The notes: generated by a model not told the origin, from the letters alone. A stretch of DNA of 64,000 nt from an uncultured Acidobacteriota bacterium (GCA_963752235.1 CAVVXL010000021.1:9133-73132), one strand, 5' to 3'; counted from the first letter of the stretch, positions 2,207-39,726 are shown. Made by a program: numbers and translations.

Positions 2207-2268
2207 CGCCCTGATCTCTGCACCCTCAGGGCTACGCTCAACCGCACCCCTTTTCAGGAGCAACGCCC

Positions 2269-4758: not shown

Positions 4759-4882
4759 GAGGCGCTCCCCGCCGTCTCCTTGTGCAGTGCAGCCCCCACC
4801 GAAACAGAATCCCTCCGGCAGACACGACCTTCTGGACGCTACACTCTAGCCTGCAGCCCAGCCTTTTTCAGGAGGAGCCCCC

Positions 4883-7519
4883 TTGGCGGATGACATCTTC
4901 GACGTCTTCCTGAGCCACAACAGCCGCGACAAGCCCGCCGTGATCCGGATCGCGGAGGCGTTGCGCGACCGGCGCGGCCTCAAGGTGTGGCTCGACGTCT
5001 GGGAGCTGCCGCCCGGCCGCCCGTGGCAGGACGCGCTCGAGACGATCCTGCGCACGGTCCGCTCGGCGGCGATCCTGGTCGGGCAGGACGGGCTGGGGCC
5101 GTGGGAGATCCCCGAGATGCGGGCCGCGCTGAACGAGATGGTCCATAGGCAGCTCCCGGTGATCCCCGTCCTCCTACCGGGCGCTCCCCGCTCGCCGGAG
5201 CTCCCCCTCTTCCTGGCGCAGAACACCTGGGTGGACCTCCGCGACGGCCTGACCGAGGAGGGGCTCGACCGGCTGCAATGGGGGATCACCGGCAGGAAGC
5301 CGCCGCTGCGGCCGGTGCCGTACCGCGCGGTCGCGCCGCGCCTCCACAACCTTCCCTTCTCCTCGCTCGGCGACCTCCTCAAGGGGCGCGACGACGAGTT
5401 GCGGAGCCTCGACGCGGGACAGACGACGGCGATCACCCAGGCGCAGACGATCTCGGGGCTCGGCGGCATTGGCAAGACGCGGCTCGCCGTCGAGTACGCC
5501 TGGCGCTCGGGGGAGCGCTACGACGCGGCGTTCTTCGTGGTCGCCGAGTCGCCGCAGGCGCTGCGCGCCAACCTCGCGCACCTCGGGCGGCCGGAGCTGC
5601 TCAATCTTCCGGAGCACGGGGCGGCGGCGGCCGAGCAGAGCCTCGCGGCCGTGCTGCGCTGGCTGCGCGAGCACGACCGCTGGCTGCTGATCCTCGACAA
5701 CGTCGACACCCCGGAGGCGCAGGCCGCAGTGATGGAGATCCTGCCGTCGCTCTCGACCGGCCGCGTCCTCATCACCTCGCGCATCCGCGATTGGGCGCCG
5801 GTCGTCGACCGCCAGCTCCTCGAGCGGCTCGGGCCGGACGAGGCGCGGCGCTATCTCCTCGACCGCACCGCCGGCGACCGCATCCCCGCCGCCGACGACC
5901 GCGAGCTGGCCGGTCGGCTCGCCGACAAGCTCGGCGGCCTGCCGCTCGCCCTCGCCCAGGCCGCCGCCTACATCGCCCACTACCAGACGAGCTTCGCCGA
6001 CTACCTCCAGACCTGGCAGAAGGAGCGCGACGAAGTCCTCACCTGGCACGACCCCGCCGTGATGCAGTACCCCGCCTCGGTCGCCGCGACCTGGCAGACG
6101 ACCTTCCGCCAGCTCTGTCCGATGGCGACCGCCGTGCTCCGCCTCGCCGCCTTCCTGGCGCTCGATCCCATCCCGGTCGAGATCTTCGAGCAGGGGGAAG
6201 CGCTGGTCTCCGAGGCGGTGGGGCTGCTCGGCGAGGAGGCCTCGGCGACCGGCGGGCCGGCGGGCGAGACGACCCTGAAGGATGCGATCGCCAGCCTCGC
6301 CGCCTGTTCGCTGGTGACGCGGAAGGGGACGAGCTTCACGGTGCACCGCATGGTGCAGGAGGTGCTGCGGGCGGGGATTCCGCAGCGGCGGCGGCGCGAC
6401 TGGATCGAGCGCTCGCTGCGCCTGGTCGTCGCCTTCTGCCCCGCGGAGTCGGACGACGTCCGCACCTGGCAGGTCTGGGACCTCCTGCGCCCGCACGCGA
6501 CGCGGATCCTCGGCTTCGCGGACCGCGAGGGGATCCATCATCCCACCTCGGAGCTGATGAGCCGCCTCGCCCTCCTCTACTTCAGCAAGGGGCTCTCCGG
6601 CGAGGCGGAGCCGTTGATGCGGCGGGCGCTCGAGATCGAGGAGAGCTGCTTCGGCCCGCAGGACCCCAACGTCGCCAGCCGCCTCAACAACCTCGCGCTC
6701 CTCCTCCAGGACACCAACCGCCTCGCCGAAGCCGAGCCCCTGCTGCGCCGTGCCCTGCGCATCGACGAGCGCGCCTACGGCCCGCGCCACCCCGACGTCG
6801 CCCGCGACCTCAACAACCTCGCCCAGCTCCTCCAGGACACCGGCCGCCCCGCCGACGCCGAGCCGCTGCTGCGCCGCGCTCTGGAGATCGACGAGCGCGC
6901 CTTCGGACCGAGCCACCCCAACGTCGCCATCCGCCTCAACCACCTCGCCCGCCTCCTCCAGGCGACCCACCGTCTCGCCGACGCCGAGCCGCTGATCCGG
7001 CGGGCCCTGGAGATCGACGAGGCCGCCTTCGGCCCGCAGCACCCCGAAATCGCCATCGACCTCAACAACCTCGCCCAGCTCCTCCAGGCCACCGGCCGCC
7101 TCGCCGAGGCCGAGCCCCTCCTGCAACGGGCCCTCGCGATCGACGAGGCCGCCTGCGGCCCGCAGCACCCGAACGTCGCCATCCGTCTCAACAACCTCGC
7201 CCGCCTGCTCAGCGCCGCCCACCGCCTCGCCGACGCCGAGCCCCTGATGCGCCGCGCCCTCGACATCGACGAGCACACCCTCGGCGCCCACCATCCCGAC
7301 GTCGCCCTCGTGCTCAACAACCTCGCGCTGCTGCTGGAGGAAACCCAGCGTCCGCACGAAGCGGAGCCGCTGATGCGGCGGGCGGTCGAGATCTTCGAGC
7401 AGAGCCTGGGGGTGGATCATCCGAAGACGCGAACGGCGCGGAAGAATCTGACGGCGCTGTGCAAGGCGAATGTCTGCGCGGAGGCGGGGGTGGCCGTCCT
7501 GCCGAATGAAACCTATTGA
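4883..7519 (+). CDS. TIR-NB-ARC-TPR STAND NTPase (bacterial NLR-like), paralog 2
   Basis: MADDIFDVFLSHNSRDKPAV TIR. GLGGIGKTRLAVEYAW P-loop. LLILDNVD. LGGLPLALAQAAAYIA GLPL motif. ~7 TPR repeats. TTG start after aggagg. Same architecture as 2269..4758. Confidence 0.9.
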   Translation: MADDIFDVFLSHNSRDKPAVIRIAEALRDRRGLKVWLDVWELPPGRPWQDALETILRTVRSAAILVGQDGLGPWEIPEMRAALNEMVHRQLPVIPVLLPGAPRSPELPLFLAQNTWVDLRDGLTEEGLDRLQWGITGRKPPLRPVPYRAVAPRLHNLPFSSLGDLLKGRDDELRSLDAGQTTAITQAQTISGLGGIGKTRLAVEYAWRSGERYDAAFFVVAESPQALRANLAHLGRPELLNLPEHGAAAAEQSLAAVLRWLREHDRWLLILDNVDTPEAQAAVMEILPSLSTGRVLITSRIRDWAPVVDRQLLERLGPDEARRYLLDRTAGDRIPAADDRELAGRLADKLGGLPLALAQAAAYIAHYQTSFADYLQTWQKERDEVLTWHDPAVMQYPASVAATWQTTFRQLCPMATAVLRLAAFLALDPIPVEIFEQGEALVSEAVGLLGEEASATGGPAGETTLKDAIASLAACSLVTRKGTSFTVHRMVQEVLRAGIPQRRRRDWIERSLRLVVAFCPAESDDVRTWQVWDLLRPHATRILGFADREGIHHPTSELMSRLALLYFSKGLSGEAEPLMRRALEIEESCFGPQDPNVASRLNNLALLLQDTNRLAEAEPLLRRALRIDERAYGPRHPDVARDLNNLAQLLQDTGRPADAEPLLRRALEIDERAFGPSHPNVAIRLNHLARLLQATHRLADAEPLIRRALEIDEAAFGPQHPEIAIDLNNLAQLLQATGRLAEAEPLLQRALAIDEAACGPQHPNVAIRLNNLARLLSAAHRLADAEPLMRRALDIDEHTLGAHHPDVALVLNNLALLLEETQRPHEAEPLMRRAVEIFEQSLGVDHPKTRTARKNLTALCKANVCAEAGVAVLPNETY
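6542..7450 (+). repeat. 126-bp in-frame tandem repeats encoding the TPR array of paralog 2
   Basis: Near-identical units encoding LNNLAxLLQxTxRLAxAEPLxRRALxIDExAxGPxHPxVA. Confidence 0.8.
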
Positions 7520-7680: not shown

Positions 7681-8277
7681 TCAAGCCAAGGCGAGCGCCA
7701 AGGGGCCCTCCCGCTCCTCCTCTTCCACCGCCGGTCGCACGCAATACCGCTCGCCGCGGCCGGTGCGCACCGCGAGGAGCAATCCCTTCCGGCAAAGACG
7801 GCTGAGCAATCGCGAGACCGTCGTCCGCGTGGCGCCTACGGCCGTGGCGAGCTGGGCTTGCGTGATCGGCACGTCGATCAGCAATCCCTCCCGCGTCGCG
7901 CGGCCGAATTGATCACCGAGCAGCGACAGAATCCCGAACAGTCGCTGCTCGATGTGCGGCCGCGCCTGCATGGCGGCCCAGGCTTCCATCGAGCGCAGAC
8001 GGTTGCGCAACCGATCGGCGAAGCCCGCCCTCTGCACGGCTTCGGCCCAGGGCTCGACTCGCACCGTCGCCGCGGTCTGCGCGGAGAGCTCGACGCAGCC
8101 GGATGCCTCGGGGTGGCCGGCGAGGATCTGGCCGGTGCCGTAGAGGCCGAGGAGGACCTCGGCGCCGTCCGCGTGGAGCATGGTGAGGGCCACCACGCCG
8201 TCGACGACTTCGAGCACGTTGTCGGGATCGAGCACGATCCTCTCCCCCATGCGGTACCAACGCTGGAGCACGCTCAT
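7681..8277 (-). CDS. Crp/Fnr-family transcriptional regulator
   Basis: cNMP-binding-like N-terminal region. C-terminal HTH ITQAQLATAVGATRTTVSRLLSRLCRKGLL. Starts 8 bp downstream of the TBDR stop on the same strand. Confidence 0.8.
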   Translation of the reverse strand: MSVLQRWYRMGERIVLDPDNVLEVVDGVVALTMLHADGAEVLLGLYGTGQILAGHPEASGCVELSAQTAATVRVEPWAEAVQRAGFADRLRNRLRSMEAWAAMQARPHIEQRLFGILSLLGDQFGRATREGLLIDVPITQAQLATAVGATRTTVSRLLSRLCRKGLLLAVRTGRGERYCVRPAVEEEEREGPLALALA

Positions 8278-8287
8278 CGGCTGCCCT

Positions 8288-10713
8288 TCAGAAGACGTAC
8301 CGGATACGGCCGGCGACGGTACGCGGCGGGATGACGTGGGTGCCGCCGAAGACGGACTGGAAGTTGTAGAGCCCCTTCTCGTCGAAGAGGTTCAACACGT
8401 CGAGCTGGATTTCGAAGGGAAAGCCGTACTGCTTCAGGCGCCCGCCGAGCGAGAGGTTCCAGACGGTGCGCGGGCGGATGCGCTGCGGGGTCTCGCCGAA
8501 GCGGATGTAGGGCGCGGCGTAGGTGGTGTCGGGGCTGGCGAGGACGTCCGCGAGGGTGCCGGCGTCGGTGACCAGGCCGGAGTCGTAGCGCTGGGTGACG
8601 CCGATCCAGGCGCCGGTCTTGGGGATGTCCCAGAAGATACCGAGCTGTTCCTGGAGGTCCTGATCGTGATCGATCACGAAGGAGCCGCCGGCGAGGGTAT
8701 CGAGCGCTCCGGCGTCGAGGAAGAGGCCGCCTACGAAGGGGTTCTGGTAGAGCGCCTTGACGTGGCCGAGCGAGAGATAGCCGCGCAGGCCGTTCCACGG
8801 GCCGCCGTCGAGCCGGGCATTCCAGCCGCTCAGATCCGCCCCCTTGAAGTTGAGCGGGAAGACGATGCCGGTGTTGAAGAACTGGTCCTGGTCGGCGGCG
8901 TTCACCACCGTCCGCTTCCACCAGGAGAGGTCGACGCGCAGGGCACGGCCGATCCCCTGCTGGAGGCCGGCGTTGTAGACCTTGTGGCGCTCGGAGACGT
9001 TGAACAGCTGACCCGAGCCGAGCTGGCTGTTCCCCTGGAGCGCCGGCGGCACCAGCGCCGCGGCGGCGGCGGACGAGGAGAGGAGGATGTTCTCGTACTC
9101 GGGGGTGATGAACATCCGGTCGTAGGAGGCGCGGAAGACGGTGTTGGTGGCGGGCAGGAACCAGGCGACGCCGACGCGCGGCTGGAGCAGGCTCTCGGTC
9201 TCGAACAGGCTATTGTGGTCGTAGCGCAGGCCGGCGTTGATCGTCAGGTTCCCCAGCCTTGCGGTGTCCTGAGCGTAACCGGCGGCGTACTGGCCGGTGC
9301 GGCCGGAGTTGAAATTGAACAGCGCGCCGCCGCGCGACAGATCGTAGGGGGCCAAATTGGGGTTGTAATCGTCAGCGGAAGGGTCGTTGAGCGTGGGATC
9401 GGTGATCCCGAAATGGAACGACTCCTGGATCGGGAAGCGCTTCGCCTGGAGGCCGACCTTGAGCTCGTTGGCCCCCACCAGCTTCGAAAGCGAAAGGTTA
9501 CCCCCCTGGTTGGCGAGCGAGCGGTCCTGCGCGGCGGTGACCGGGGTGTCGCCAGGCGAGCCGTCGAGGCGCAGGCTGTTGCGGCGGCTGTAGACCTGGC
9601 CGTCGAGCACCCAGCCGGCGGCGGCCACGTGCTGGTAGCCGAGGTTGAGGTTCCAGTCCTCCGAGAAGACCCGCTGGTTCTGCCCGTCGGCCTCCTGCGA
9701 GGGAAGGTTGGTGACGTCGCGGTCGGTCCGGCCGCCGCTGCCGGTGAGGCGGAAGGAGTCGGACTCCCCGGCCGCCAGCGCGTCGTAGCGCGCGAACAGG
9801 CGTCGGGTGTTCCCCTGGTTGTGGAAGTTGTCGAAGGAGACGGGGTCGAGGAAGCGGTCGGATTTCGAGGCGTCGAGGTCGAGGAAGAGGCCGGAGCGCG
9901 GGACCTCCCCAGCCGGCGGCGGCGGACGCCTTCCATCGTCGAGAAGCGGCCGGCGCCGAGGCCGACGTCGCCGTGGAGGCCGTCGTGGCCCAGGGCGGAA
10001 CGGGTGGTGAGGTTGATGACGCCGTTCGCCTTCTCGCCGAACTCGGCGGCGATGCCGCCGGTGACGATCTCGATCCCCTCGGCGATGCCGGGGTCGAGCG
10101 AATTCGAGAAGGAGATCCCCATCTGGTCGCCGATCGGCTGGCCGTCGATCACCAGGAGCTGCTGCGAGTGGCCGCCCTGGAAGTGGTAGCGGCCGTTCTC
10201 GTCCTGGCTGAAGCCGGGCGCGGAGAGGACGATCGCCTCGAAGGCGCGCGAGGCGACCGGCGCGGCGAAGCGGCGGACCAGCGACTTGTCGATGTCGGTG
10301 TGAGTCGAGGAGTCGTCCGTCTCGACCTCGACGTTCTCCTTCTCGGCGGTGACGGTCGTCGAGCCCGAGAACTGCGCGGTGAGCTGGATCTTCTGATCGA
10401 CCGGCACGGCGCCGCGCACCTGGACGTCGGCGTGGAAATCGGCGAACCCTTCGAGCGAAGCCCGCAGATGATACGGATTGTCGGGGACGTTGTAGAAGAT
10501 GAAGCCGCCGTCAGGGCCCGAGACGACCTGCTGCGACGAGCCGGCGAGGTCGTTTGCGAGCTCCACGCTCACGCCGGGGAGCGGCTCGTTGCCGGGTCCC
10601 ACGACCTTGCCGCGGACCTGTCCGGCCCAGGCGGCGGCGCCGAGAAGGAAAAGAAAGAAAAAGAGAGAGGTAGGGACAGCGGCAATCGCCGCGCGAACGG
10701 TTTTCGGTTCCAC
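8288..10713 (-). pseudogene. TonB-dependent receptor (signal peptide, CarboxypepD_reg-like domain, plug, barrel), frameshifted
   Basis: N-terminal ORF 9244..10713 (signal peptide, GVSVELANDLAGSSQQVVSGPDGGFIFYNVP, plug IDGQPIGDQMG) and C-terminal ORF 8288..9628 (barrel ending RIRYVF) lie in different frames. The frame switches near 9905-9935 inside a gccgccgccgccgg tract. Either a pseudogene or an indel error. Confidence 0.75.
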
Positions 10714-18286: not shown

Positions 18287-19446
18287 GGTGCCCACGCTTG
18301 AATCTCCGGTCCCTGATTCCGCTCCTCGCCCTTCTCCTGCTCTCCGCGGCCGGCTGCAAAAAAGGCGGCGCCGACGCGGCCGGTCCGACCGGAAAGCCCG
18401 GAAAGCCCGCTCCCCCGCCGACGATGGCGCTCGGCCCCGAGGACACGGCGGTGGTGACGCCAGGGCCGGTCGAGAGCGGCCCGGCCCTCACCGGCACGCT
18501 CTCGGCGCAGCGGCAGGCGGCGATCCGGGCGCAGATCGCGGGGTCGGTGCTCTCCGTGACCGCCGAGCCCGGGCAGGCGGTGAAGCGCGGGCAGACCCTC
18601 GCCCGCCTCGACTCGAGCGCGCTGACCGACGCCTACAACTCGGCGCGTTCCATCGCCACCAGCGCCCGCAGTGCCCTGGCGGTCGCCGAGCGCGAGGCGA
18701 CGCGCCAGGAGACCCTGGTCAAGGCCGGGGCGGTGGCGCAGAGGAACGTCGAGACGGCGCAGCAGTCGGTGGTGCAGGCCCGGGCCACTCTCTCCCAGGC
18801 GCAGGCGCAGATCGCCAGCGCCGAAAAGCAGCTCGCCTACACCACCGTCACCGCCCCCTTCTCGGGGGTGGTCAGCGAGCGGCCGGTGTCGGCCGGCGAC
18901 GTGGTGCAGCCGGGCACCAGCCTCTACACGGTGGTCGACCCGTCGAGCCTCCAGCTCGAGGCGGCGATCCCCGCCGAGCAGCTCGCCGCCCTCAAGGTGG
19001 GCTCGCCGGTCCGCTTCACCATTACCGGCTACGGCGACCGCACTTTCAAAGGGTCGATCACCCGCATCAACCCGAGCGCCGATCCCACCACCCGCCAGGT
19101 GCGGGTCTACGCCGAGGTCCCCAACCCGGGCGACCTGGTGGCCGGCCTCTACGCCGAGGGGCGGGTGGAGAGCGAGTCGCGCCACGGCCTCACCCTGCCG
19201 GCGGCGGCGATCGACCGCCGGATGGCGAAGCCGGCGGTGCTCGTGGTGCGCGACGGCAAGGTGGCGCGGGTCGACGTCGAGCTCGGGCTCGCCGACGAGA
19301 AGGCGCAGCGGGTCGAGGTGCTGCACGGGGTCGCGGCCGGCGACGTGGTCCTCCTCGGCGCCGCGCAGGAGATCGCGCCGGGGACGCCGGTGACCCTCGC
19401 GCCGTCGGTGCAGCAGGCGGCGGAGAGGCTGGCGCAGACGCTATGA
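18283..19446 (+). CDS. RND efflux membrane fusion protein (periplasmic adaptor, lipoprotein)
   Basis: Lipobox LLLLSAAGC. HlyD/AcrA-like TVTAPFSGVVSERPVSAGDVVQPGTSLYTVVD. Overlaps the tolC-like stop (ATGA). Confidence 0.85.
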   Translation: MRCPRLNLRSLIPLLALLLLSAAGCKKGGADAAGPTGKPGKPAPPPTMALGPEDTAVVTPGPVESGPALTGTLSAQRQAAIRAQIAGSVLSVTAEPGQAVKRGQTLARLDSSALTDAYNSARSIATSARSALAVAEREATRQETLVKAGAVAQRNVETAQQSVVQARATLSQAQAQIASAEKQLAYTTVTAPFSGVVSERPVSAGDVVQPGTSLYTVVDPSSLQLEAAIPAEQLAALKVGSPVRFTITGYGDRTFKGSITRINPSADPTTRQVRVYAEVPNPGDLVAGLYAEGRVESESRHGLTLPAAAIDRRMAKPAVLVVRDGKVARVDVELGLADEKAQRVEVLHGVAAGDVVLLGAAQEIAPGTPVTLAPSVQQAAERLAQTL

Positions 19447-22400
19447 CGATCTCCGATTTCGCCATCAAGCGCCCGATCGTCACCGTGGTGGTGATGCTGG
19501 CGCTGGTCATCTTCGGCATCTTCGCCCTCTTCCAGCTCGACGTCGACGAGTTCCCCGACCTCTCGAACCCGATCGTCTTCGTCTCCGTCCCCTACCCCGG
19601 CGCCTCGCCGTCGCAAGTCGAGCAGGAGGTGGTGGAGCGGATGGAAGAGGCGTTCAGCGGCCTCTCGGGGATCGACGAGATCCGCTCCACCTCGCTCGAC
19701 GGCTTCGCCACCATCACCGTGCAGTTCGTCTTCGGCAAGGACCCCGACCAGGCGGCGCAGGACGTGCGCGACGCCATCTCGGGGATCCGCAACGACCTGC
19801 CGACCGAGATGAAGGAGCCGGTGCTCAAGAAGTTCGACCCCGACGACTTCCCCATCGTCTCGCTCGTCCTCGCCTCCGACCGCATGTCGCCGGCCGAGAT
19901 GACGCTGCTCGCCGACCCCGGGATCACCCGCGTCCTGCGCGGCATCAACGGCGTCGCGCAGGTGACGGTGGTGGGCGGCGCCAACCGCGAGATCTCGGTC
20001 GACGTGCGGCCGGGCGACATGGCCGCGTCGGGGGTGACGGTGGCGCAGGTCTTCGCGGCGGTGGCGGCGCAGAACCTGGCGTCGCCGGTCGGCCAGATCC
20101 AGGGACGGCTGACCGAGCAGGCGATCCGCCTGCGCGGCCGGCTCGAGACCCCCGAGGACTTCGCGCGGCTGGTGGTCGGCTCCCACAACGGCCAGTTGAT
20201 CCGCCTGGGCGAGGTGGCGAACGTGCGCGACGGCACCACCGAGCAGCGCTCGCTCGCCCTCTTCAACGGCCAGCTCGCGGTCGGCATCGACATCACCAAG
20301 TCCAAGGGGTCGAGCACCACCAAGGTCGCCGACGCCGTCAAGGCGGCGATCCAGAAGATCCAGCCGACCCTGCCGCCGGGGGTGAAGATGTCGGTGGTGC
20401 GCGACGCCGGCGAACGGGTGCACAGCTCGGTGCGCAACGTCGAGGAGGCGCTGGTCGAGGGGGCTCTGCTCACCGTGCTGGTGGTCTTCCTGTTCCTCAA
20501 CTCCTGGCGCTCGACGGTGATCACCGGCCTCGCGCTGCCGGTGTCGGTGCTCTCCTCGTTCATCGCGGTGTGGGCCTGCGGCTTCACCCTCAACACCATG
20601 TCGCTGCTCGGCCTGTCGCTCGCCATCGGCATCCTGATCGACGACGCCATCGTGGTGCGGGAGAACATCGTGCGCCACGTCGAGATGGGCAAGGACCACG
20701 TGGAGGCGGCGCACGTCGGCACCAACGAGATCACCATGGCGGTGGCGGCCACCACCTTCTCGATCGTGGCGGTGTTCGCGCCGGTCGCCTTCATGCAGGG
20801 GATCGCCGGGCAGTGGTTCAAGCCGTTCGCGCTGACCATCGCCTGCGCCGTGCTGGTCTCCCTCTTCGTCTCCTTCTCGCTCGACCCGATGCTCTCCGCC
20901 TACTGGCCGGACCCGCAGCTCGAGGGGCACGAGCGGAAGAACTTCATCGCGCGGGCGCTCGACCGCTTCAACCAGTGGTTCGATCGCCAGGCCGACCGCT
21001 ACAAGGGGGTGGTCGCCTGGGCGCTCGACCACCGGGTGGCGGTGCTCCTCATCGTGGCGGTGTCGTTCTTCGGCGCCATCGCCCTGCAGGTCTTCTTCGG
21101 CGGCGGCGGCTTCATCCCGGACAGCGACCGCTCGGAGATCACCCTGTCGATCGAGACGCCGCCGGGCTCGAACCTGAGCTACACGGCGATCAAGGCGCGC
21201 GAGCTCTCCGCGATCGCCCGCGCCCACAAGGAAGTGGCCTACACCTACACCAGCATCGGCAGCGCCACGGGCTCGGGGGACGTCGACACCGGCAGCCTCT
21301 ACATCAAGATGTGCCGAAAAAGCAGCGCGACATCTCGCAGCAGGCGCTCGCCGCCCAGCTGCGCACCGAGACGGCGCGGGTCGCCGGCGCCACCACCTAC
21401 CTCTCGCAGCAGGGCGGGCCGGGGGGGAACCAGCGGCAGATCCAGGTGCAGCTACGCGGCCAGAACATGGCGTCGCTCAGTAAGGCGGCGGCGGCGATCG
21501 AGGGCGAGATGCGCAAGGTCAAGGGAGCGACCGACATCGGCCTCTCGACCCGCGGCGACCGTCCCGAGCTCGAGGTGCAGCTCAACCGCGGCCTCGCCGG
21601 CAGCCTGGGGCTCAACGTCAGCCAGGTGGCGCAGTCGATGCGCCCCGCCTTCGCCGGCGTCAAGGCGGGCGACTGGATCGATCCCGCTCGGCAAGACCCG
21701 CGACGTCACCGTCCGCCTCGCCCCCGAGGCGCGGGCGAACGTCGCCGACATCGAACGGCTGCCGCTGATGGTGAGCGGCGGCGGCTCGGCGGAGCGGGAG
21801 CGGCGGGAACGCAGGGGGCGGCGGCGCGGCGGGCGCTGCCGGAGGCGCCCCGATGGTTTCTGGCGGCGGCGGCGGCGGCGCGCCGTCGCTGATCCCGCTC
21901 GGCCAGGTGGCGACCATCGCGCGCAGCACCGGCCCGGCGCAGATCGACCACCTCAACCGCGACAAGGTGGTGTCGGTGGGCGGCAACGTCGCCGGGCGCT
22001 CGCTCTCCGAGGTGACGCGCGACCTCAACAAGCGGGTGGCCGCTCTCCGCCTGCCGGCCGGGGTGACGCTGTCGCAGGGGGGTGAGGTGAAGAACCAGAA
22101 CGAGGTCTTCGGCAAGATCTTCGCCGCCCTGGCGCTCGCCGTGCTGATGATGTACCTGATCCTGGTCGTCCAGTTCGGCTCGTTCCTCGACCCGCTGGCG
22201 ATCCTCCTCTCGCTGCCGCTGTCGCTGGTCGGCGTCGTGCTGATGCTGCTGATCACCCACGACACCTTGAACCTGATGAGCCTGATCGGCGTCATCCTGC
22301 TGATGGGGATCGTGGCCAAGAACGCCATCCTGCTGATCGACTTCGCGAAGTGGAACCACGAGAAGGGGATGCCGCTGCGCGACGCCCTGATCGAGGCCGG

Positions 22401-22680
22401 CCGCGTGCGCCTGCGCCCCATCCTGATGACCACCGTCGCCCTGATCGCCGGCATGATCCCCGTCGCCATGGGGCTGGGAGAAGGCGCCGACTTCCGCGCT
22501 CCCCTGGGACGCGCGGTGATCGGCGGCACCATCACCTCCACCTTCCTCACCCTGCTGGTGATCCCGACGATCTACGAGATCCTGGTCGAGACGCGGGAGA
22601 AGGTGCTGGGGTGGTTCGGGCGGGGGAAGAAGGCGAAGAAGCACGTCGAGCCCAAGGCGGAGCCGGTGGGAGCGCCCTGA
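19443..22680 (+). pseudogene. RND (HAE1/AcrB-family) efflux pump with three frame disruptions
   Basis: MTISDFAIKRPIVTVVVMLALVIFGIFALFQ ... C-terminal ILLMGIVAKNAILLIDFA. The reading frame breaks near 21305-21315 (IKM/VPKKQRDIS), near 21680-21690 (DWIDP/LGKTRD at a ccc run) and across a GGC-rich ~85-bp stretch at 21766-21885. Confidence 0.8.
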
Positions 22681-22719: not shown

Positions 22720-25700
22720 TCAGCGCTCTAGAATCTCGAAGATCGAGTTAAATAGAAACTCTCGGATCTCGCCCTTCTGATCGTCTCTCTTGTGCACGAG
22801 TTTGTAGAGGAGAGAGACTTCTGCAGCGGTGAGTGCCTGCTGCTGGCTGACTCGCTCCCAAGAAATCTGAGGTTCACCTTTTCCCGTCAACAACGGCTCC
22901 ACCGCAGGCAACCAACGCGCGGGATCAACTCCACCAAAGCTCAGCACGTCCACCGCACGCAAGCGAAGCTCCGCATCCTCCACCGTCAGCAACGGCTCTA
23001 GCGCAGGCGACCAACGCGCGGGATCGACTCCAACAAAGCTCAGCACGTCCGCCGCACGCAAGCGAAGCTCCGCATCCTCCCCCGTCAGCAACGGCTCCAA
23101 TCCAGGCAACCAAAGCGCGAAATCAACTCCACCAAACCTCAGCACGTCCGCCGCACGCAAGCGAAGCTCCGCATCCTTCACGATCAGCAACGGCTCCAGC
23201 GCAGGCCACCAATGCGCGGGATCAACTCCACCAAACCTCAGCATGTCCGCCGCACGCAAGCGAAGCTCCGCATCCTCCACCGTCAGCAACGACTCCAGCG
23301 CAGGCAACCAACGCGCGGGATCGACTCCACCAAACCTCAGCACGTCCGCCGCACGCAAGCGAAGCTCCGCATCCTCCACCGTCAGTAACGACTCCAGCGC
23401 AGGCAACCAACGCCCGGGATCGACTCCAACAAACCTCAGCACGTCCGCCGCATGCAAGCGAATCTCCGCATCCTCCACCGTCAGCAATGACTCCAGCACA
23501 GGCAACCAACGCGCGGGATCGACTCCAACCGAACTGAGCAGGGACGCCGCACGCCAGCGAAGATCCGCATCCCCCCCCGTCAGCAAAGGCTCCAGCGCAG
23601 GCCACCAACGCGCGGGATCGACTCCACCAAGCCTCAGTAACTCCGCCGCACGCCAGCGAAGCTCTCCATCCTCCCCCGTCAACCATGGCTCCAGCGCAGC
23701 CAACCAACGCGCGGGATCGACTCCAGCAGACCTCAGTACGGACGCCGCACGCCAGCGAAGCTCCACATCCTCCCCCGTCAGCCATAGCTCAAGTGAGCGC
23801 GACCACTTCTCGCTGTTCGCGTCAAGATATTCTTGAACAAAGGATTCAATGTGGGCCATGCTGCTTTTATAATGTAATAAGGCAGTCAAGACCTCTAACC
23901 TGTCGTCACCTACTCGCGCCAGCCCGAGAGCGGCATGGCATTGCACATCGGGATCACTATCTTTAAAGCTTAGCCGGCACGCATCGAGAGCGTTTGGATT
24001 CTCCCTCGTGACGTTACTGAATAGGCGAACCGCCTCCATCCGTACATCCCAGGAATCGTGCCTCGCCACAGGTTGAAGGGCAGTGACCGCATCCCGAGAG
24101 GGCCTCAGGCGGGGAAGCGCGCGGACTGTCTGAACGAAAGCGTTCTTGAAGGGACTGTATGGCAGCTCCTGAACCACTTCTCCCAATCGTACGATCACCC
24201 GCTCGGCAAGGCTCCGCTTGACCCCGACGTCGTCAGCAATGCAGGCGGCGGCCAATCGCAGATTCGAGTTCAGAAGCTGTTCCAGAGGTCCCGGATCCCG
24301 AAGCCATATTGCCTCGACCAGATCCGTGGCCGTGTCGCGGTCCCGCTGGACGATACCGAGATATCCCACCGCGAGCAGGATGACTTCCCGCCAGCGGGGA
24401 TCGTTCCGGAGCGGCAAAATGCGCTCGATGGCGCGAGAGCTGGGCGTGGTCAGCTCCACGGCCGCGAGAAACTCTTCGAAGGTCGGGTGCCAGAAGGCGA
24501 AAATGTCTTTCCCACGCTCCTCGAGTAGCCCGGCCCGGTCAGCTGCCGCATTGAGATAGCTCTCCGCCGTGGCCTCCGGATGGTCCTCATCGAGCTCCTG
24601 ATCGAGGAGGATCTCCACCAGCTTGCGCTTGAGCTCGACGCGGTGAACGACACCCGTCGGTTTCGTGCGGCGCGTCCACTCGGCCACGGCGCCCCAGACG
24701 CGGATGAGGTTGTTGATGGGGAGATGCACGCCGCCGACGTCGATCCCGGCCAGCGAGCGCCCTCTGTTCCAGGTATCCATCAGGGTCTTGACGGCCCGGT
24801 CGTAGAGTTGCACCCGCTCCTCGGGCAACCGGGCCTGCTCGTGACGGATCAAGGCGAGAATGACGAGCATCAGCGGATTGGTCGCCAGCTCGAAGACCTT
24901 CGGGTTCCGCTGGATCTCCTCCAGCATCCCTTTGGCTTCCTTCTCCGCTTTGGAAAGATCGGGAGCCTGCGGGTGGCGCCAGCGCTCGAAGGCACGCTGC
25001 CATTGGTGGACGAACGTCTCGACCTGCTCGGGAGAAAAATTCGGCAGCGAGAAATGGGGAATGTCGCCCGCCAGGCGGACGTAACCGTAAGGGCGTGAGG
25101 TCAGAAGGAACCGGTTGGCTCTATGGTCGGCCAGGAACCGGTCCACCGCCTTGACCACCAGGATGCGTTCGCGGCTGTCCGGAATCTCGTCCACGCCATC
25201 CAGTAGCAGGAAAACCCGGCCGGCCTGGAGTTCCTGATCCATGGCGACCTGAAGCGCCTCGCCTCCGCAGTGGACCAAGATGCCGTCGAGATACTCGCGG
25301 AGCGAGAGATCCTTGCCGCGCGACCGCGCATCCGTATAGCCCGCGAGCGGCAGGACGATCGGCGTGAGATCTAGATCCCCCCACCCCGAGCGGTCTCCGA
25401 GCCGCTCCTGCCTCGCCTCGCGATCCAGAGAGAAGGACCGGGCCAGGAACCGTGTCAAGGTGCTCTTGCCCACTCCCGGCCCGCCGATCACCACGGCGTG
25501 GCGGATCTGCGAGAGAACATGATCAACCGGACTCCCCTTCACGCCTTCCTTCTGTCCCGCGCGCCACCGCTCGCCCGTCAGGACCGCGAAATCCTCCTCC
25601 CGCCGGGCGCGCTCTTCGGGACCCAGATCCTGGTTGTCGAGCAGATCCTTCAGGAGCTTCCCTTCTCGGTCCCGGGTATCGGCCTGGTCCCGCTCCGGAA

Positions 25701-26271
25701 CCAGCCAGGGGAGGACGTAGACGTCATCGAGCGGCAGCGAGGCCGCGTGTTCCTCGCGAGTCCCTCCCTCGATTCCGCGATAGTCGGCATACTGGTAGTC
25801 GCGCGCCACCCGGCCGCGCCAGGCCGCGAGCGCTGTGTCCAGGGCTACGGCGGTGAGCTGTTGTCGCTCTGCGGGAAGTCCGAGGGTTTCAAAGCGTGCG
25901 AGCAAAGCGCCCTGTTGGAGATAGATGGCGGCTGCCAGGGCCGAGAGGGTATCCAGCGTCTCCCGGCTCTGCTCGCCAGTCGCGAGGAGCTGCGAGACCT
26001 TCTCTTCGAGCCTGGCGTCATCCTCCTCTTCGGACAATTGGAGCAGGGCGGCTCCGGCACCCGAGAGGAGGGGGCCCACGCCCGGAATCTGCTGGAGCTG
26101 TGCCGAGCCAAATTCCTTGAGGCCCACCAGGATCGCCCGCAGGTACGGCGCCTCCTTGCCGGGCTGGCTTCCCAACCCGAAGCGCTGAAGAAGGGACCGC
26201 CGAACGGGCACGGGCAGCGCGGCATTCGTGCGCACCAAAGCTTCCTTGGGACCTGAGGGCTCGTCGGGCAT
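22720..26271 (-). CDS. NACHT-domain STAND NTPase with C-terminal HEAT (PBS-lyase-like) repeat array
   Basis: P-loop VVIGGPGVGKSTLTRFLA. Walker B FLLLDGVDE. ~12x 33-aa repeats DPARWLPALESLLTVEDAELRLRAADVLRFGGV. ~260-aa N-terminal region with no motif I recognise. Confidence 0.85.
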   Translation of the reverse strand: MPDEPSGPKEALVRTNAALPVPVRRSLLQRFGLGSQPGKEAPYLRAILVGLKEFGSAQLQQIPGVGPLLSGAGAALLQLSEEEDDARLEEKVSQLLATGEQSRETLDTLSALAAAIYLQQGALLARFETLGLPAERQQLTAVALDTALAAWRGRVARDYQYADYRGIEGGTREEHAASLPLDDVYVLPWLVPERDQADTRDREGKLLKDLLDNQDLGPEERARREEDFAVLTGERWRAGQKEGVKGSPVDHVLSQIRHAVVIGGPGVGKSTLTRFLARSFSLDREARQERLGDRSGWGDLDLTPIVLPLAGYTDARSRGKDLSLREYLDGILVHCGGEALQVAMDQELQAGRVFLLLDGVDEIPDSRERILVVKAVDRFLADHRANRFLLTSRPYGYVRLAGDIPHFSLPNFSPEQVETFVHQWQRAFERWRHPQAPDLSKAEKEAKGMLEEIQRNPKVFELATNPLMLVILALIRHEQARLPEERVQLYDRAVKTLMDTWNRGRSLAGIDVGGVHLPINNLIRVWGAVAEWTRRTKPTGVVHRVELKRKLVEILLDQELDEDHPEATAESYLNAAADRAGLLEERGKDIFAFWHPTFEEFLAAVELTTPSSRAIERILPLRNDPRWREVILLAVGYLGIVQRDRDTATDLVEAIWLRDPGPLEQLLNSNLRLAAACIADDVGVKRSLAERVIVRLGEVVQELPYSPFKNAFVQTVRALPRLRPSRDAVTALQPVARHDSWDVRMEAVRLFSNVTRENPNALDACRLSFKDSDPDVQCHAALGLARVGDDRLEVLTALLHYKSSMAHIESFVQEYLDANSEKWSRSLELWLTGEDVELRWRAASVLRSAGVDPARWLAALEPWLTGEDGELRWRAAELLRLGGVDPARWWPALEPLLTGGDADLRWRAASLLSSVGVDPARWLPVLESLLTVEDAEIRLHAADVLRFVGVDPGRWLPALESLLTVEDAELRLRAADVLRFGGVDPARWLPALESLLTVEDAELRLRAADMLRFGGVDPAHWWPALEPLLIVKDAELRLRAADVLRFGGVDFALWLPGLEPLLTGEDAELRLRAADVLSFVGVDPARWSPALEPLLTVEDAELRLRAVDVLSFGGVDPARWLPAVEPLLTGKGEPQISWERVSQQQALTAAEVSLLYKLVHKRDDQKGEIREFLFNSIFEILER
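22860..23830 (-). repeat. 99-bp in-frame tandem repeats (~90% identical) encoding the HEAT array
   Basis: caacggctccagcgcaggcaaccaacgcgcgggatcgactccaccaaacctcagcacgtccgccgcacgcaagcgaagctccgcatcctccaccgtcag repeated ~10 times. Confidence 0.85.
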
Positions 26272-26335
26272 TTCAGCCTCCGTGCAGGAAGTCTATCGAA
26301 GAAGTGGAAGCCGGCGCTGGGCTTAGGCCTGGCGT

Positions 26336-26558
26336 CCGGCCCACCGGGCCGGGAGAACAGAGCCCAGGGCTGAGGCCGAAGGCCGATGCCCTGGGTTGAG
26401 GAACGACAACGCAGAGCGGCCTGAAAGGTCGCGAGAAATCTTTATCGAGTGGGGTTCTCGCGGCCCTTCAGGCCGCCAGGAGGTGCCGCACCCATGGACC
26501 CAGGGCATCGGCCTACGGCCTCAGCCCTGGGCTAGGATCTCCCGGCCCGTTGGGCCGG
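26336..26558. repeat. nested inverted-repeat element C (MITE-like or structured RNA) upstream of the NACHT gene
   Basis: Outer 61-bp arms ccggcccaccgggccgggagaacagagcccagggctgaggccgaaggccgatgccctgggt and reverse complement (2 mismatches). Inner 22-bp arms gcggcctgaaaggtcgcgagaa / ttctcgcggcccttcaggccgc around a 16-nt loop. Confidence 0.75.
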
Positions 26559-26722
26559 ATGCAAAACCGCCGAGCAGGTCCTGCGTTTCTCCTCCTCGTA
26601 CTCGGAGGAGGCCGATGGGCTCACAACGTTCTAACAAGGATAGGAACCGGCCTGCGAACGCCCCCTCCCGGCCTCCCCCGAGTACAGGGGAGGAGAAAAG
26701 CTCCCACCGAGGTAGGTTGACG

Positions 26723-26783
26723 TAGGGGCGGGGTCCGTCCCACCCTCAACGTCGAAGGGCGGGGACGAACCCCGCCCCTACGA
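26723..26783 (-). terminator. GC-rich stem-loop just downstream of the VWA gene stop
   Basis: gtaggggcggggt-N35-accccgcccctac, perfect 13-bp arms. No obvious U-tract. Confidence 0.4.
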
Positions 26784-26849
26784 AAAGCTGCTGCGAGATC
26801 GCCAATCATCCCCACGGCCCGCGCCGCAGCGGGATCGCCAACCGCCCTC

Positions 26850-38278: not shown

Positions 38279-39664
38279 TCAGGCCTGGGCGGGCGCCTCG
38301 TCGGGAACGTCGGCCGACGTCTCGGGCTCCGGCTCAGGCTCCGGAGCCTTCCGCTTGGGAGCGTCGGGGAGCTCGGCTTCGACGTTGCGGACGCGCGGGT
38401 TCAGGAAACCCATCAGGGCCACGATCACGGGAACCAGCGCCATCGAGACCATCAGCAGGCCGATGCCGCGGCCGGGGCCGACGCCGATCACCCGCCCCGC
38501 GATCGTGCCGGCGAGAACGCCGCCGACCATCATCGCCGGGTTGAAGATCTTGTCGGAGAGCGGGCCGGCCGAGAAGTCGCCGAGCGGCACGGTGAACTGG
38601 GCGATCATGCGGCGCACCGCGAAGACCCGCCCCTGGACGTCGCCCGGGGTCTTGCTCTGCCAGATCGCCTGGCTCGACGCGTTCATGATCGGCAGGCCGA
38701 TGTACCAGAGGAGGACGCCGGCGCCCACCATGTAGATGTTGGGGCGCAGGCCGATGATCACGAACCAGACGCCGAGCGCCGCCCAGGCTCCGAGCACGCC
38801 GTAGATCCGCTTCTTGGGACCGCCGGTGGCGGTCATGATGAGGCCGCCGCACAGCGTGCCGACGCCGACCAGGGCCATGATCGTCCCCACCGCAGCCTCG
38901 TTGGCGAAGCTGGCGATCATCGGCAGGACGGCGACGCCGCACATCGACATCACGAAGTTGATCAGGGCGAAGAGGCAGAGCAGGTTGAACAGCCCCGGCC
39001 GCTCGCGGATGAAGGTCCAGCCGAAGGCCGCCTCCTTCCAGATCGATCCCTTGGCGCGCCGCCCCTCCTCGCTCTGCTCCGGGCGCGGGACATGGACCAG
39101 CAGCAGCGCCCCGGCGGCGACCAGGAAGGTGACGAAGTCGATCATCAGGATCCGCTCGGCGCCGATCCACAGCAGCAGGACGCCGCCGATGAACGGTCCG
39201 GCGATCGTGGTCGCCGAGCCGGCGAACTCCAGGAAGCCGTTGACCCGCCCGTAGTCCTTGGGCTGCACCAGCAGGGTGATCGCCGCGATGTAGGCCGGCC
39301 ACTGGAAGGTGGCGACGACCGAGTTGAAGAGCACGCCGATGTAGATGTGCCAGACCTCGAGCTGGCCCTGCGACAGCAGGTAGGCGTAGGTCCCCACGGT
39401 GAACGCGGGAGCGATGCTGCACCAGAACAGGACCCATTTCCGGTCCCAGCGGTCGACGAGGGCCCCGGCGATCGGCCCGATGAAGATCCCGGGAAGCCCT
39501 GCGAAGACGATCGTCAGGGTGAACTGGGTCACCGAGTGGGTGTGCTTCAGCACCCACAGGCTGAGCGCGAAGCTGGTCAGCCCGGAGCCCATCAGGGAGA
39601 TGAACTGCCCCACCCAGATGATGACGAACGTCTTGAAGGGACTGCTTTCTTTTGGTTCTGACAT
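38279..39664 (-). CDS. MFS transporter (EntS/macrolide-efflux-like), probable exporter of the NRPS product
   Basis: 12 predicted TM segments. VDRWDRK motif. 62 bp downstream of the last NRPS gene on the same strand. Confidence 0.8.
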   Translation of the reverse strand: MSEPKESSPFKTFVIIWVGQFISLMGSGLTSFALSLWVLKHTHSVTQFTLTIVFAGLPGIFIGPIAGALVDRWDRKWVLFWCSIAPAFTVGTYAYLLSQGQLEVWHIYIGVLFNSVVATFQWPAYIAAITLLVQPKDYGRVNGFLEFAGSATTIAGPFIGGVLLLWIGAERILMIDFVTFLVAAGALLLVHVPRPEQSEEGRRAKGSIWKEAAFGWTFIRERPGLFNLLCLFALINFVMSMCGVAVLPMIASFANEAAVGTIMALVGVGTLCGGLIMTATGGPKKRIYGVLGAWAALGVWFVIIGLRPNIYMVGAGVLLWYIGLPIMNASSQAIWQSKTPGDVQGRVFAVRRMIAQFTVPLGDFSAGPLSDKIFNPAMMVGGVLAGTIAGRVIGVGPGRGIGLLMVSMALVPVIVALMGFLNPRVRNVEAELPDAPKRKAPEPEPEPETSADVPDEAPAQA

Positions 39665-39726
39665 GTTTTCCCTTTGCTCGCGTTACTCGCGGAGCCGCCC
39701 TAGGCGGTCTCGTGAAATGGTGGAAA

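Follow-up and report, generated by a model that had tools for sequence, protein, structure and literature searches.

A NACHT-HEAT protein from an uncultured Acidobacteriota bacterium is a bacterial relative of animal NLR receptors with a clade-specific helical head

A gene on the minus strand of the 64,000-nucleotide stretch of Acidobacteriota DNA analyzed here (the window) encodes a bacterial relative of animal NLR receptors, composed of an ATP switch, a tail of repeats, and a small helical head. The protein is a single-gene STAND protein of the bNACHT type, and we infer that its function is probably antiviral. Its parts, in window coordinates, are as follows.

22720 to 26271, minus strand: complete NACHT-HEAT protein gene (ORF listing, orthologs, dN/dS, and GC3)
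26277 to 26281, minus strand: Shine-Dalgarno sequence GGAGG, read from the sequence, 5 nt 5' of the ATG
26320 to 26575, no strand assigned: long palindromic REP/MITE-like element (inverted arms and fold energy)
26200 to 26271, minus strand: residues 1 to 24, leader predicted to be disordered (pLDDT below 50 in both models)
25834 to 26199, minus strand: residues 25 to 146, clade-specific all-alpha N-terminal module (AF2 models, profile and fold searches)
25498 to 25833, minus strand: residues 147 to 258, pre-NACHT extension (retention in relatives, dN/dS)
24412 to 25497, minus strand: residues 259 to 620, NACHT NOD module (Pfam NACHT, invariant motifs, and model match)
23794 to 24411, minus strand: residues 621 to 826, degenerate HEAT/ARM-like hairpins (full-length model, Pfam HEAT and HEAT_2)
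22903 to 23793, minus strand: residues 827 to 1123, nine tandem 33-aa (99-bp) HEAT-like units (Tandem Repeats Finder and register)
22723 to 22902, minus strand: residues 1124 to 1183, nonrepeat C-terminal cap (full-length model and family consensus)

Gene and domain architecture

The gene is real and intact. It is a single unbroken open reading frame of 1,183 amino acids plus a stop codon, and close orthologs begin with the same MPDEPS... sequence, those with 74 to 83% identity sharing the start of the query. Purifying selection was detected in every segment (dN/dS of 0.07 to 0.30, query against the L001 ortholog). Its GC3 is 0.73, compared with 0.90 to 0.97 in the neighboring genes, and this atypical composition recurs in four genomes (0.68 to 0.73 versus 0.84 to 0.98 in neighbors). 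The palindrome, in the intergenic region 5' of the gene, pairs 65-nt arms at 91% complementarity, encloses a nested inverted repeat, and folds with an energy of −200 kcal/mol (z = −15.8). An Rfam scan of the element returned no family at the gathering score, and its 33-nt core was found in more than 120 metagenome contigs. The palindrome adjoins the gene but probably takes no part in its function.

The NTPase is a member of the NACHT clade of STAND NTPases. It carries a Walker A motif (P-loop), GGPGVGKST, at residues 263 to 271; a Walker B motif, FLLLDGVDE, at 354 to 362; a sensor-1 TSR at 391 to 393 (within LLTSRP); an NPL motif at 465 to 467; and a winged-helix motif, FWHPTFEEFLAA, at 593 to 604, which includes His595. 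The Walker motifs fit the patterns GxxGxGK[ST] and hhhhD[GAS]hDE expected of the clade, and the winged-helix motif fits F.H..hQEahAA. Residues G263, P265, G266, G268, K269, G359, D361, E362, S392, R393, and H595 are invariant in 39 homologs. Pfam NACHT (PF05729) recognized the query at 28.9 bits, a small margin over the cut-off of 26.7, and recognized homologs at up to 49 bits. A phmmer search of the NACHT region alone against the PDB yielded no match. The full-length AF2 model (pLDDT 84.5, pTM 0.76) was queried through Foldseek, and its predicted NLR-like NBD-HD1-WHD fold matched the closed hexamer of NLRP3 (8swk, E 3.5e-8), as well as NLRP7 (9lq2 and 9lq4) and the SCMC core complex (8h93).

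Immediately before the P-loop, residues ∼147 to 258 are part of the NTPase module, with which they share their pace of evolution (dN/dS of 0.087 versus 0.073 for the NACHT core, query against the L001 ortholog), and all relatives retain them. This extension comprises the motif YADYRGIEG (residues 161 to 169), in which R165 and G166 are invariant in homologs, a strand LPLDDVYVLP (179 to 188), and a helical hairpin (197 to 240). It presumably sits where FISNA sits in NLRP3, an analogy of position.

Behind the NOD module, ∼6 to 7 degenerate hairpins (residues ∼621 to 826; pLDDT ∼90 to 97), conserved throughout the family, lead into the repeat array. Tandem Repeats Finder reported a 99-bp period with 9.1 copies, 88% matches, and a score of 1327 at 22884 to 23782, and the nine units are 78 to 95% identical to one another in pairwise DNA comparisons. 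Several lines of evidence identify the units as HEAT-like: Pfam HEAT_2 matched seven stretches of the query (E 4e-20), a profile of the family alignment matched alphaRep/HEAT chains (E 3e-49), the full-length model matched the solenoids of PP2A-A (E 8.5e-10) and CAND1, and the array was modeled as regular helix pairs with a pLDDT of ∼90. The number of units ranges from 5 to 10 in orthologs, and the units of one gene resemble each other (0.91) more closely than they resemble those of orthologs (0.71 to 0.77). By a crude estimate, dN/dS between units is ∼1; for the array against that of the L001 ortholog it is 0.30. We conclude that the last nine units have recently been expanded or homogenized and that their number varies among relatives. 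The array is presumed to be a ligand-sensing solenoid. It is closed by a conserved 60-aa, three-helix cap, which family members retain whatever the length of the array before it; the closing motif of the query is also found at the end of the L001 ortholog.

The preliminary description of this gene, a NACHT-HEAT STAND NTPase with P-loop GPGVGKST and Walker B LLLDGVDE, agrees with these motifs, with the Pfam NACHT and HEAT_2 matches, and with the three-part NLR layout. Its array of 12 units must be replaced by one of nine near-identical units; the 99-bp period that it proposed is correct, the DNA identity that it gave as ∼90% ranges from 78 to 95% in pairwise comparisons, and the units extend over 22903 to 23793 rather than 22860 to 23830.

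A swappable effector slot and its genomic setting

Relatives that are 37 to 52% identical to the query align with it from residue ∼129 to 151 onward, through NACHT and HEAT. In front of this shared portion, six of them carry a Metallophos (calcineurin-like phosphoesterase) head (P0068, P0069, P0073, P0096, P0099, and P0111), two a PNP_UDP_1 head (P0106 and P0117), and one a weakly matching Mrr_cat head (P0104). The swap point is sharp, at residues ∼140 to 147, and residues 25 to 146 are absent whenever an enzymatic head is present. Because relatives carry enzymatic domains at this position, the helical module of the query fills what is an effector slot in this clade of conflict-type NLRs. Cyanobacterial NACHT-HEAT proteins recovered in a genome scan have unrelated heads (EAD4 and HEPN_Swt1). 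The earlier suggestion that the N-terminal region might be an effector or signaling domain holds insofar as the effector slot is occupied, but only ∼120 of the 260 residues are involved.

The gene is convergent with the AcrB-type gene of an RND efflux operon, tail to tail and 39 bp apart, and not back-to-back with the operon as first described. The two TIR-NB-ARC-TPR genes said to be nearby do exist, but at 2215 to 7519, ∼15 kb away. Both the TIR-STAND genes and the efflux operon provide weak context for function. In this lineage, the gene is vertically inherited between the efflux operon and a VWA gene, amid syntenic housekeeping neighbors; synteny is maintained in two Thermoanaerobaculia genomes, where the gene has diverged (74%) about as much as its neighbors (66 to 89%). 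In the corresponding slot of a syntenic sister genome (L006/L007), truncation has left a 188-aa remnant, and a PADLOC PDC-M36 candidate defense cassette has taken the place of the gene (PDC-M36A, E 1e-77; PDC-M36B, E 5.7e-9). With this truncation and cassette, the chromosomal slot behaves like a defense hotspot. Elsewhere, the homologous gene adjoins toxin-antitoxin modules (P0013), lies 4 kb from a TIR gene and an nSTAND1-TPR gene (P0019), or has transposases nearby (P0033); no conserved partner gene was found in eight contexts examined. A single-protein genome scan revealed a patchy spread over Acidobacteriota classes, Hydrogenedentota, Armatimonadota/Abditibacteriaceae, Longimicrobium, and a Gloeobacterales cyanobacterium.

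A prosaic explanation for these data could be a STAND ATPase with housekeeping or regulatory duties that would respond to an endogenous signal and act as a signaling scaffold, uninvolved in conflicts with phages or mobile elements. The stable syntenic position and neighbor-like divergence in the two Thermoanaerobaculia genomes are consistent with this, as are immediate neighbors such as the efflux operon, a VWA protein gene, and citrate synthase, the failure of defense HMMs to match, and the lack of a recognizable enzymatic effector. We nevertheless consider it unlikely: classic conflict effectors (PNP, Metallophos, and Mrr-like) occupy the same slot in close relatives, the gene is dispensable in L006/L007, where a candidate defense cassette stands in its place, the array is variable and homogenized, codon usage is atypical in all genomes examined, contexts differ across lineages, and a Pfam scan detected neither a DNA-binding domain nor any other domain for regulatory output.

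The N-terminal head and a proposed mode of action

The head proper follows a leader (residues 1 to 24) whose conservation is confined to the closest orthologs. In the AF2 models, it consists of five helices (residues 41 to 58, 66 to 80, 85 to 96, 103 to 118, and 120 to 129), with a motif RLGLG.EP and a conserved IPGxGP loop at residues 62 to 67. Only L48, P63, and G66 are near invariant, and the homolog alignment contains no invariant polar (catalytic-type) residues in the module. Its dN/dS against the L001 ortholog is 0.26, reflecting evolution ∼3-fold faster than that of the NTPase module. Among 1.84 billion representatives, only 74 relatives of the module were found, and a profile search with the head alone returned nothing but fragments of the same clade.

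Scans of the query with Pfam, NCBIfam, and PADLOC found no known domain in the head. Residues 1 to 260 had no Pfam match in the query or in 45 homologs, the heads of these 45 had no NNH-type domain by Pfam scan, and the head did not match a Pfam copy containing EAD4 and the NCAB1 and NCC-H domains of Kibby et al. A profile of residues 1 to 260 likewise had no match among PDB sequences. Foldseek searches with the head were nonsignificant, the best results being generic helical bundles in the PDB (E 0.23) and an E of 0.057 among the viral structures of BFVD; no death-fold match was obtained. No transmembrane segment was detected, the highest Kyte-Doolittle 19-residue window reaching 1.22. A transmembrane or glycine-zipper hairpin at IPGVGPLLSGAGAALL was considered and rejected on the basis of this low hydropathy and of charged residues there in distant homologs. 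For a membrane-inserting helical executioner (CC, HeLo, or 4HB type), these searches thus gave neither a significant fold match nor a transmembrane segment, results with which membrane activity arising from a conformational change would be compatible. Three family members (P0020, P0030, and P0050) place a further ∼180-aa domain ahead of the module, so the head needs no free N terminus. Since neither sequence nor Foldseek searches liken the head to a known effector, it is only its position that suggests a role in output.

An alternative is that the whole 260-aa N terminus is a helical extension or lid of NACHT, an autoinhibitory element or oligomer interface with no output of its own, the output then coming from elsewhere, e.g., the C-terminal cap or ATP turnover. 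Residues 147 to 258 do act as part of the NTPase module, the head has neither invariant polar residues nor a known effector fold, and a conserved C-terminal cap is present; moreover, Kibby et al. name several NNH domains, of which NNH1 can lie between a PNP effector and NACHT. Against this, residues 25 to 146 are lost when an enzymatic effector is present, with a sharp breakpoint at ∼140 to 147, as expected of an alternative head and not of a generic lid, and their faster evolution sets them apart from the NTPase module. A lid spanning the entire N terminus is in our estimation distinctly unlikely. The unassigned 260-aa region of the preliminary description, which indeed matched neither Pfam nor the PDB, is thus two parts of which only ∼120 aa are independent; the ordinary NACHT helical extension that it named as the refuting case applies to residues 147 to 258 but probably not to residues 25 to 146.

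Very unlikely is a head that acts as an adaptor (effector associated or Death-like) recruiting a separately encoded effector with the same domain: the head is small, all-alpha, and noncatalytic, and adaptor heads are a recognized bNACHT class (Kibby et al.), but no neighboring gene is conserved in the eight contexts, an exhaustive search placed the module almost only at the N terminus of NACHT proteins, short hits resembled fragments truncated by contig ends or frameshifts (one being a proven gene remnant), hhalign against the EAD4 domain gave a probability of 0.5%, and Foldseek gave no death-fold match. An amyloid-motif or EAD-type two-gene system was rejected, as neighbors are not conserved and stand-alone domain genes were not found.

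We favor, as rather likely by analogy, a single-polypeptide NLR-related STAND receptor of the bNACHT type that would work as follows. As in NLR, Avs, and bNACHT mechanisms, the solenoid and C-terminal cap would keep the ADP-bound NACHT closed at rest. The inhibition of NACHT would be lifted when a ligand docks on the concave side of the HEAT array; this ligand could be a foreign protein, most probably phage encoded, or a host protein in a perturbed state. ATP binding may then lead to oligomerization via NACHT and pre-NACHT surfaces, bringing the N-terminal helical modules together. Because the head lacks invariant polar residues and a transmembrane segment and has no conserved partner gene, its output would most likely be nonenzymatic and driven by proximity; it might either assemble into a helical array that is toxic or perturbs structure, or capture a host factor, with growth arrest or abortive infection as the outcome. 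A more specific proposal, that the five-helix head (residues 25 to 146, with the IPGxGP loop) is an uncharacterized nonenzymatic executioner, activated by oligomerization, that kills or arrests the cell by itself, is tentative and unlikely.

Such an executioner, if it exists, would correspond in bacteria to the heads of CC, HeLo, and PYD type in eukaryotic NLRs while differing from them in fold. If the defense role holds, the family would contribute a further single-gene NLR-like clade from soil phyla that have received little study (Acidobacteriota, Hydrogenedentota, Armatimonadota, and Gemmatimonadota). Lacking a detectable enzymatic effector, this clade raises the question of how a small helical head yields an immune output, and sister proteins with PNP, Metallophos, and Mrr-like heads provide natural chimeras for testing head function. 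The nine near-identical, number-variable HEAT units offer a tractable case of sensor diversification in a bacterial NLR, parallel to that of repeat-rich fungal NLRs. Since the overall architecture was already described by Kibby et al., the family represents an incremental advance, and only a head that proves to be a new executioner domain would make it more than that.

Comparison with known systems

Among bNACHT proteins (Kibby et al., bioRxiv 10.1101/2022.07.19.500537, later in Cell), effectors include phosphoesterases, PNPase, and REases, HEAT repeats are one sensor type, and NNH denotes "NACHT N-terminal helical" domains of unknown role. Closest to the query are the HEAT-sensor architectures of clades 2 and 3, e.g., "NNH2+NACHT+HEAT_2." Both share the three-part layout of N-terminal head, NACHT, and C-terminal HEAT-type tandem-repeat sensor, with a helical head at ∼5 to 165 and NACHT starting at ∼230 to 260 as in the Nostoc, Okeania, and Westiellopsis rows; the winged-helix His is conserved, and in relatives of the query the head is exchanged for one of the REase, phosphoesterase, or PNP type. 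A search of their Table S1 with the NCBI accessions of four relatives and the names Hydrogenedentes and Gemmatimonadetes found none of these present.

Avs proteins (Avs1 to Avs5 and later families; Nature 2026, PMC13581612) are STAND NTPases that carry an effector at the N terminus and a sensor of alpha-helical repeats at the C terminus; binding of conserved phage proteins by this sensor triggers oligomerization. The query shares this logic of N-terminal head, STAND NTPase, and C-terminal helical repeats, but its NTPase is of the NACHT clade and not of the Avs type, its sensor has regular HEAT-like repeats of 33 aa in place of a TPR-like array, and its head is not a recognized effector. Avs1 to Avs5 and the other families of PADLOC-DB v2 were excluded, the best match, to mad8 (E 2.9e-4), being confined to the P-loop (residues 245 to 296), and EruA (NCBIfam NF058535) was excluded at 28.8 bits, with at least 1000 required, over residues 348 to 529 only. 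Of the initial proposal of a possible second antiviral STAND, Avs- or bNACHT-like, the bNACHT-type layout is upheld, while the Avs families in PADLOC are unmatched.

AlphaRep and PBS-lyase HEAT-like proteins have two-helix units of ∼31 to 33 aa, which the repeat profile matched (E 3e-49), but they are designed binders or lyase subunits without an NTPase, and the likeness is one of repeat scaffold only. With animal NLRs, it is the predicted NACHT fold that is shared (NLRP3, NLRP7, and the 8h93 SCMC core complex; E 3.5e-8 to 2e-7), whereas sequence similarity lies below phmmer detection, the sensor is HEAT and not LRR, and the query has no PYD or CARD. Fungal NLRs of the het-e/het-d type (PMC12222747) have highly conserved internal repeats. 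Both systems share near-identical sensor repeats, a repeat number that differs among alleles or relatives, and signs of concerted evolution, whereas the fungal repeats are WD40, ANK, or TPR and those of the query HEAT-like.

Three-part NLR layout of the NACHT-HEAT protein

The start codon of the NACHT-HEAT gene is sound, because a GGAGG box lies 5 nt 5' of the ATG and the closest orthologs share the MPDEPS... start. The principal features of the gene and its product are as follows.

22720-26271, minus strand: NACHT-HEAT ORF, a single uninterrupted frame of 1183 aa
Residues 263-271: P-loop GGPGVGKST
Residues 354-362: Walker B FLLLDGVDE
Residues 827-1123 (window 22903-23793): nine 33-aa repeat units in protein register

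The encoded protein has a three-part NLR layout. Pfam places a NACHT domain at residues 259-426 (28.9 bits versus a cut-off of 26.7) and HEAT_2 over seven stretches (E 4e-20). A full-length AlphaFold2 model built from a 39-sequence alignment (mean pLDDT 84.5, pTM 0.76) was compared with PDB structures by Foldseek, which returned the HEAT solenoids of PP2A PR65 (E 8.5e-10) and CAND1 together with the NACHT receptors NLRP3 (closed hexamer, 8swk; E 3.5e-8), NLRP7, and the 8h93 SCMC core complex. The family profile also matched designed alphaRep HEAT-like proteins (E 3e-49). A single-sequence search of PDB chains with the NACHT region found no match, since the region is too divergent. Among 39 homologs, the Walker A residues, G359, D361, and E362 of the Walker B DGVDE (with D358 nearly so), sensor 1 S392-R393, and N465-P466-L467 are invariant, as is His595 within FWHPTFEEFLAA, the NACHT-typical winged-helix histidine. 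All parts of the protein are under purifying selection: relative to the syntenic ortholog, dN/dS is 0.073 in the NACHT core, 0.087 in the segment preceding it, 0.26 in the N-terminal head (residues ~25-146), and 0.30 in the repeat array.

The sensor array is dynamic. Its near-identical units number nine rather than the 12 counted in the preliminary description, and Tandem Repeats Finder detects 9.1 copies of a 99-bp period at 22884-23782 (88% matches, score 1327). Pairwise DNA identity among the nine units is 78-95%. In the predicted structure they are preceded by an additional 6-7 degenerate HEAT/ARM-like hairpins (residues ~621-826) and followed by a nonrepeat 60-aa C-terminal cap. Close orthologs carry 5, 7, 7, 8, 9, or 10 of the 33-aa units; across the family, arrays contain anything from a few units to ~40, the latter in the 2200-aa homologs P0081 and P0083, and in one distant member a formylglycine-generating-enzyme-type sensor replaces the array. 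The ortholog unit counts, the likeness of units within the window gene (0.91, versus 0.71-0.77 to ortholog units), and a between-unit dN/dS of ~1 together indicate that the array has been expanded or homogenised lineage by lineage.

Distribution and genomic setting

The closest proteins (74-83% identity) belong to Thermoanaerobaculia metagenome-assembled genomes. The head-NACHT-HEAT family is spread patchily over other Acidobacteriota, including Holophagales, Blastocatellia, and Solibacter, and beyond them Hydrogenedentota, Abditibacteriaceae/Armatimonadota, Longimicrobium, and one Gloeobacterales cyanobacterium. In the window, the gene shares its surroundings with the following elements.

2215-4758 and 4850-7519, plus strand: tandem pair of paralogous TIR-NB-ARC-TPR genes, with stop-to-stop translations of 847 and 889 aa
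8291-10510, minus strand: 740-aa ORF with coding-like GC3 (0.80)
19443-22680, plus strand: AcrB-type RND transporter gene in three frames (to ~21300, 21311-21685, and 21880-22677)
26320-26575: ~250-nt near-perfect hairpin, ~50 nt upstream of the NACHT-HEAT start
26714-26789: second inverted repeat, GC-rich (86% complementarity over 28-nt arms), with the VWA gene on one side and the ~250-nt hairpin on the other
38282-39682: MFS transporter gene, beside the peptide synthetase cluster
39730-63999, minus strand: non-ribosomal peptide synthetase cluster of four very large genes, continuing past the window end

The AcrB-type gene, part of an OEP-HlyD-AcrB operon, lies 39 bp away and tail-to-tail with the NACHT-HEAT gene; a VWA-domain gene occupies the opposite flank, and citrate synthase is close by. 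Because the AcrB-type ortholog in the related genome L001 is intact and free of frame changes, the three reading frames imply two frameshifts, marking either a pseudogene or assembly indel errors. The TIR-STAND genes to which proximity had been ascribed do exist, but they lie ~15 kb off and, with their TIR heads, make up a STAND pair of their own. The local defence context is weak rather than strong. The 740-aa ORF, which adjoins a Crp-family regulator gene (7684-8391), matches nothing in Pfam at E ≤ 0.001, and the synthetase genes consist of repeated Condensation, AMP-binding, and PP-binding modules.

The upstream hairpin resembles a dispersed element of the REP/MITE type. It has 65-nt arms with 91% complementarity, a 22-nt inverted repeat nested within it, and a fold energy of -200 kcal/mol (z = -15.8), and it reaches the gathering score of no Rfam family. 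Its 33-nt core, CCCAGGGCTGAGGCCGWAGGCCGATGCCCTGGG, is found as exact copies in >120 metagenome contigs, where two copies often lie in inverted orientation, separated by 100-250 nt. The second inverted repeat matches Acido-1 RNA below threshold (19.6 bits versus a gathering score of 50).

In L001, gene order is as in the window, and the NACHT-HEAT protein is 74% identical while its neighbours are 66-89% identical; the gene has therefore been inherited vertically in this lineage. Its GC3 is 0.68-0.73, versus 0.84-0.98 for neighbouring genes, in each of the four genomes examined. A third syntenic genome (L006/L007) has kept just a 188-aa stump of the gene, 81% identical to residues 1-200 and followed by a two-gene PDC-M36 candidate defence cassette, B then A (L006 6001-8756; the same in L007), whose PADLOC matches have E values of 1e-77 (A) and 5.7e-9 (B). 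The slot thus shows turnover like that of defence hotspots. By eye, the A protein has an apparent PD-(D/E)xK-like motif near its C terminus.

Some other family members neighbour toxin-antitoxin modules, one lies 4 kb from a TIR gene and an nSTAND1-TPR gene, and others have transposases nearby or unremarkable surroundings. No neighbouring gene is conserved across the eight family contexts examined; the system is therefore a single-gene one. The protein could instead be a non-immune regulatory STAND, as its synteny and housekeeping neighbours would suggest, but its dispensability, its codon usage, and the effector swaps described below speak against that role.

The helical head and enzymatic effectors are mutually exclusive

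The N-terminal 260 residues had been described as a single unassigned region. An orphan head does exist, but it spans only ~120 aa (residues ~25-146), and residues ~147-258 are part of the NTPase module. Relatives align from query residue ~129-151 through NACHT into the HEAT region at 37-52% identity, and the shared pre-NACHT segment comprises an invariant R165-G166 in YADYRGIEG, an LPLDDVYV strand, and a helical hairpin. Ahead of this junction, homologs P0068, P0069, P0073, P0096, P0099, and P0111 carry a calcineurin-like phosphoesterase, P0106 and P0117 carry PNP_UDP_1, and P0104 matches Mrr_cat weakly. The head is a separate module, mutually exclusive with enzymatic conflict effectors and bounded by a sharp junction. 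It might be nothing more than a lid on the NACHT module; that description is true of residues 147-258 and poor for residues 25-146, because relatives with an enzyme head always lack the latter.

A short RLGLG.EP motif, five helices, and a conserved IPGxGP loop make up the head. None of its polar residues is invariant, near-invariance being limited to L48, P63, and G66, and no hydrophobic stretch in it reaches membrane-span length. Neither Pfam (query and 45 homologs) nor PDB sequences yielded a match, nor did a Foldseek comparison of its fold with PDB and BFVD structures. An exhaustive phmmer search of 1.84 billion cluster representatives found only 74 proteins sharing the N-terminal region, nearly all with NACHT; short hits look like truncated fragments. 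An EAD-like adaptor, which the head could also be, is disfavoured by the lack of a partner gene and of stand-alone head copies, and by an hhalign probability of 0.5% against EAD4.

In homologs P0020, P0030, and P0050, the helical head is preceded by an additional ~180-aa domain (residues 1-~180), conserved among the three and unmatched in Pfam; P0041 bears another, different N-terminal extension (residues 1-~125).

Proposed output and comparison with known systems

Following established NLR, Avs, and bNACHT behaviour, ligand would bind the HEAT solenoid, and ADP-to-ATP exchange in the NACHT module would then drive oligomerisation and cluster the heads. For the final and weakest step, we favour a non-enzymatic, proximity-driven head output, in which self-assembly or host-factor capture would lead to growth arrest, because the head has neither catalytic-type conservation nor a partner gene.

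The finding is real and the system type already known. The preliminary interpretation was largely right in kind. A PADLOC model search ruled out membership of Avs or any other PADLOC family. EruA identity was rejected by family-model comparison. Four accessions of relatives were checked against the table of Kibby et al. (bioRxiv 10.1101/2022.07.19.500537), and none was present. A Pfam copy holding two further domains of that study, NCAB1 and NCC-H, as well as EAD4, gave no match for the head. That survey described HEAT sensors among bacterial NACHT proteins, along with heads of the phosphoesterase, PNPase, and REase types and a number of NNH ("NACHT N-terminal helical") domains of unknown function. 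Its Table S1 includes "NNH2+NACHT+HEAT_2" proteins whose domain boundaries lie near those of the NACHT-HEAT protein.
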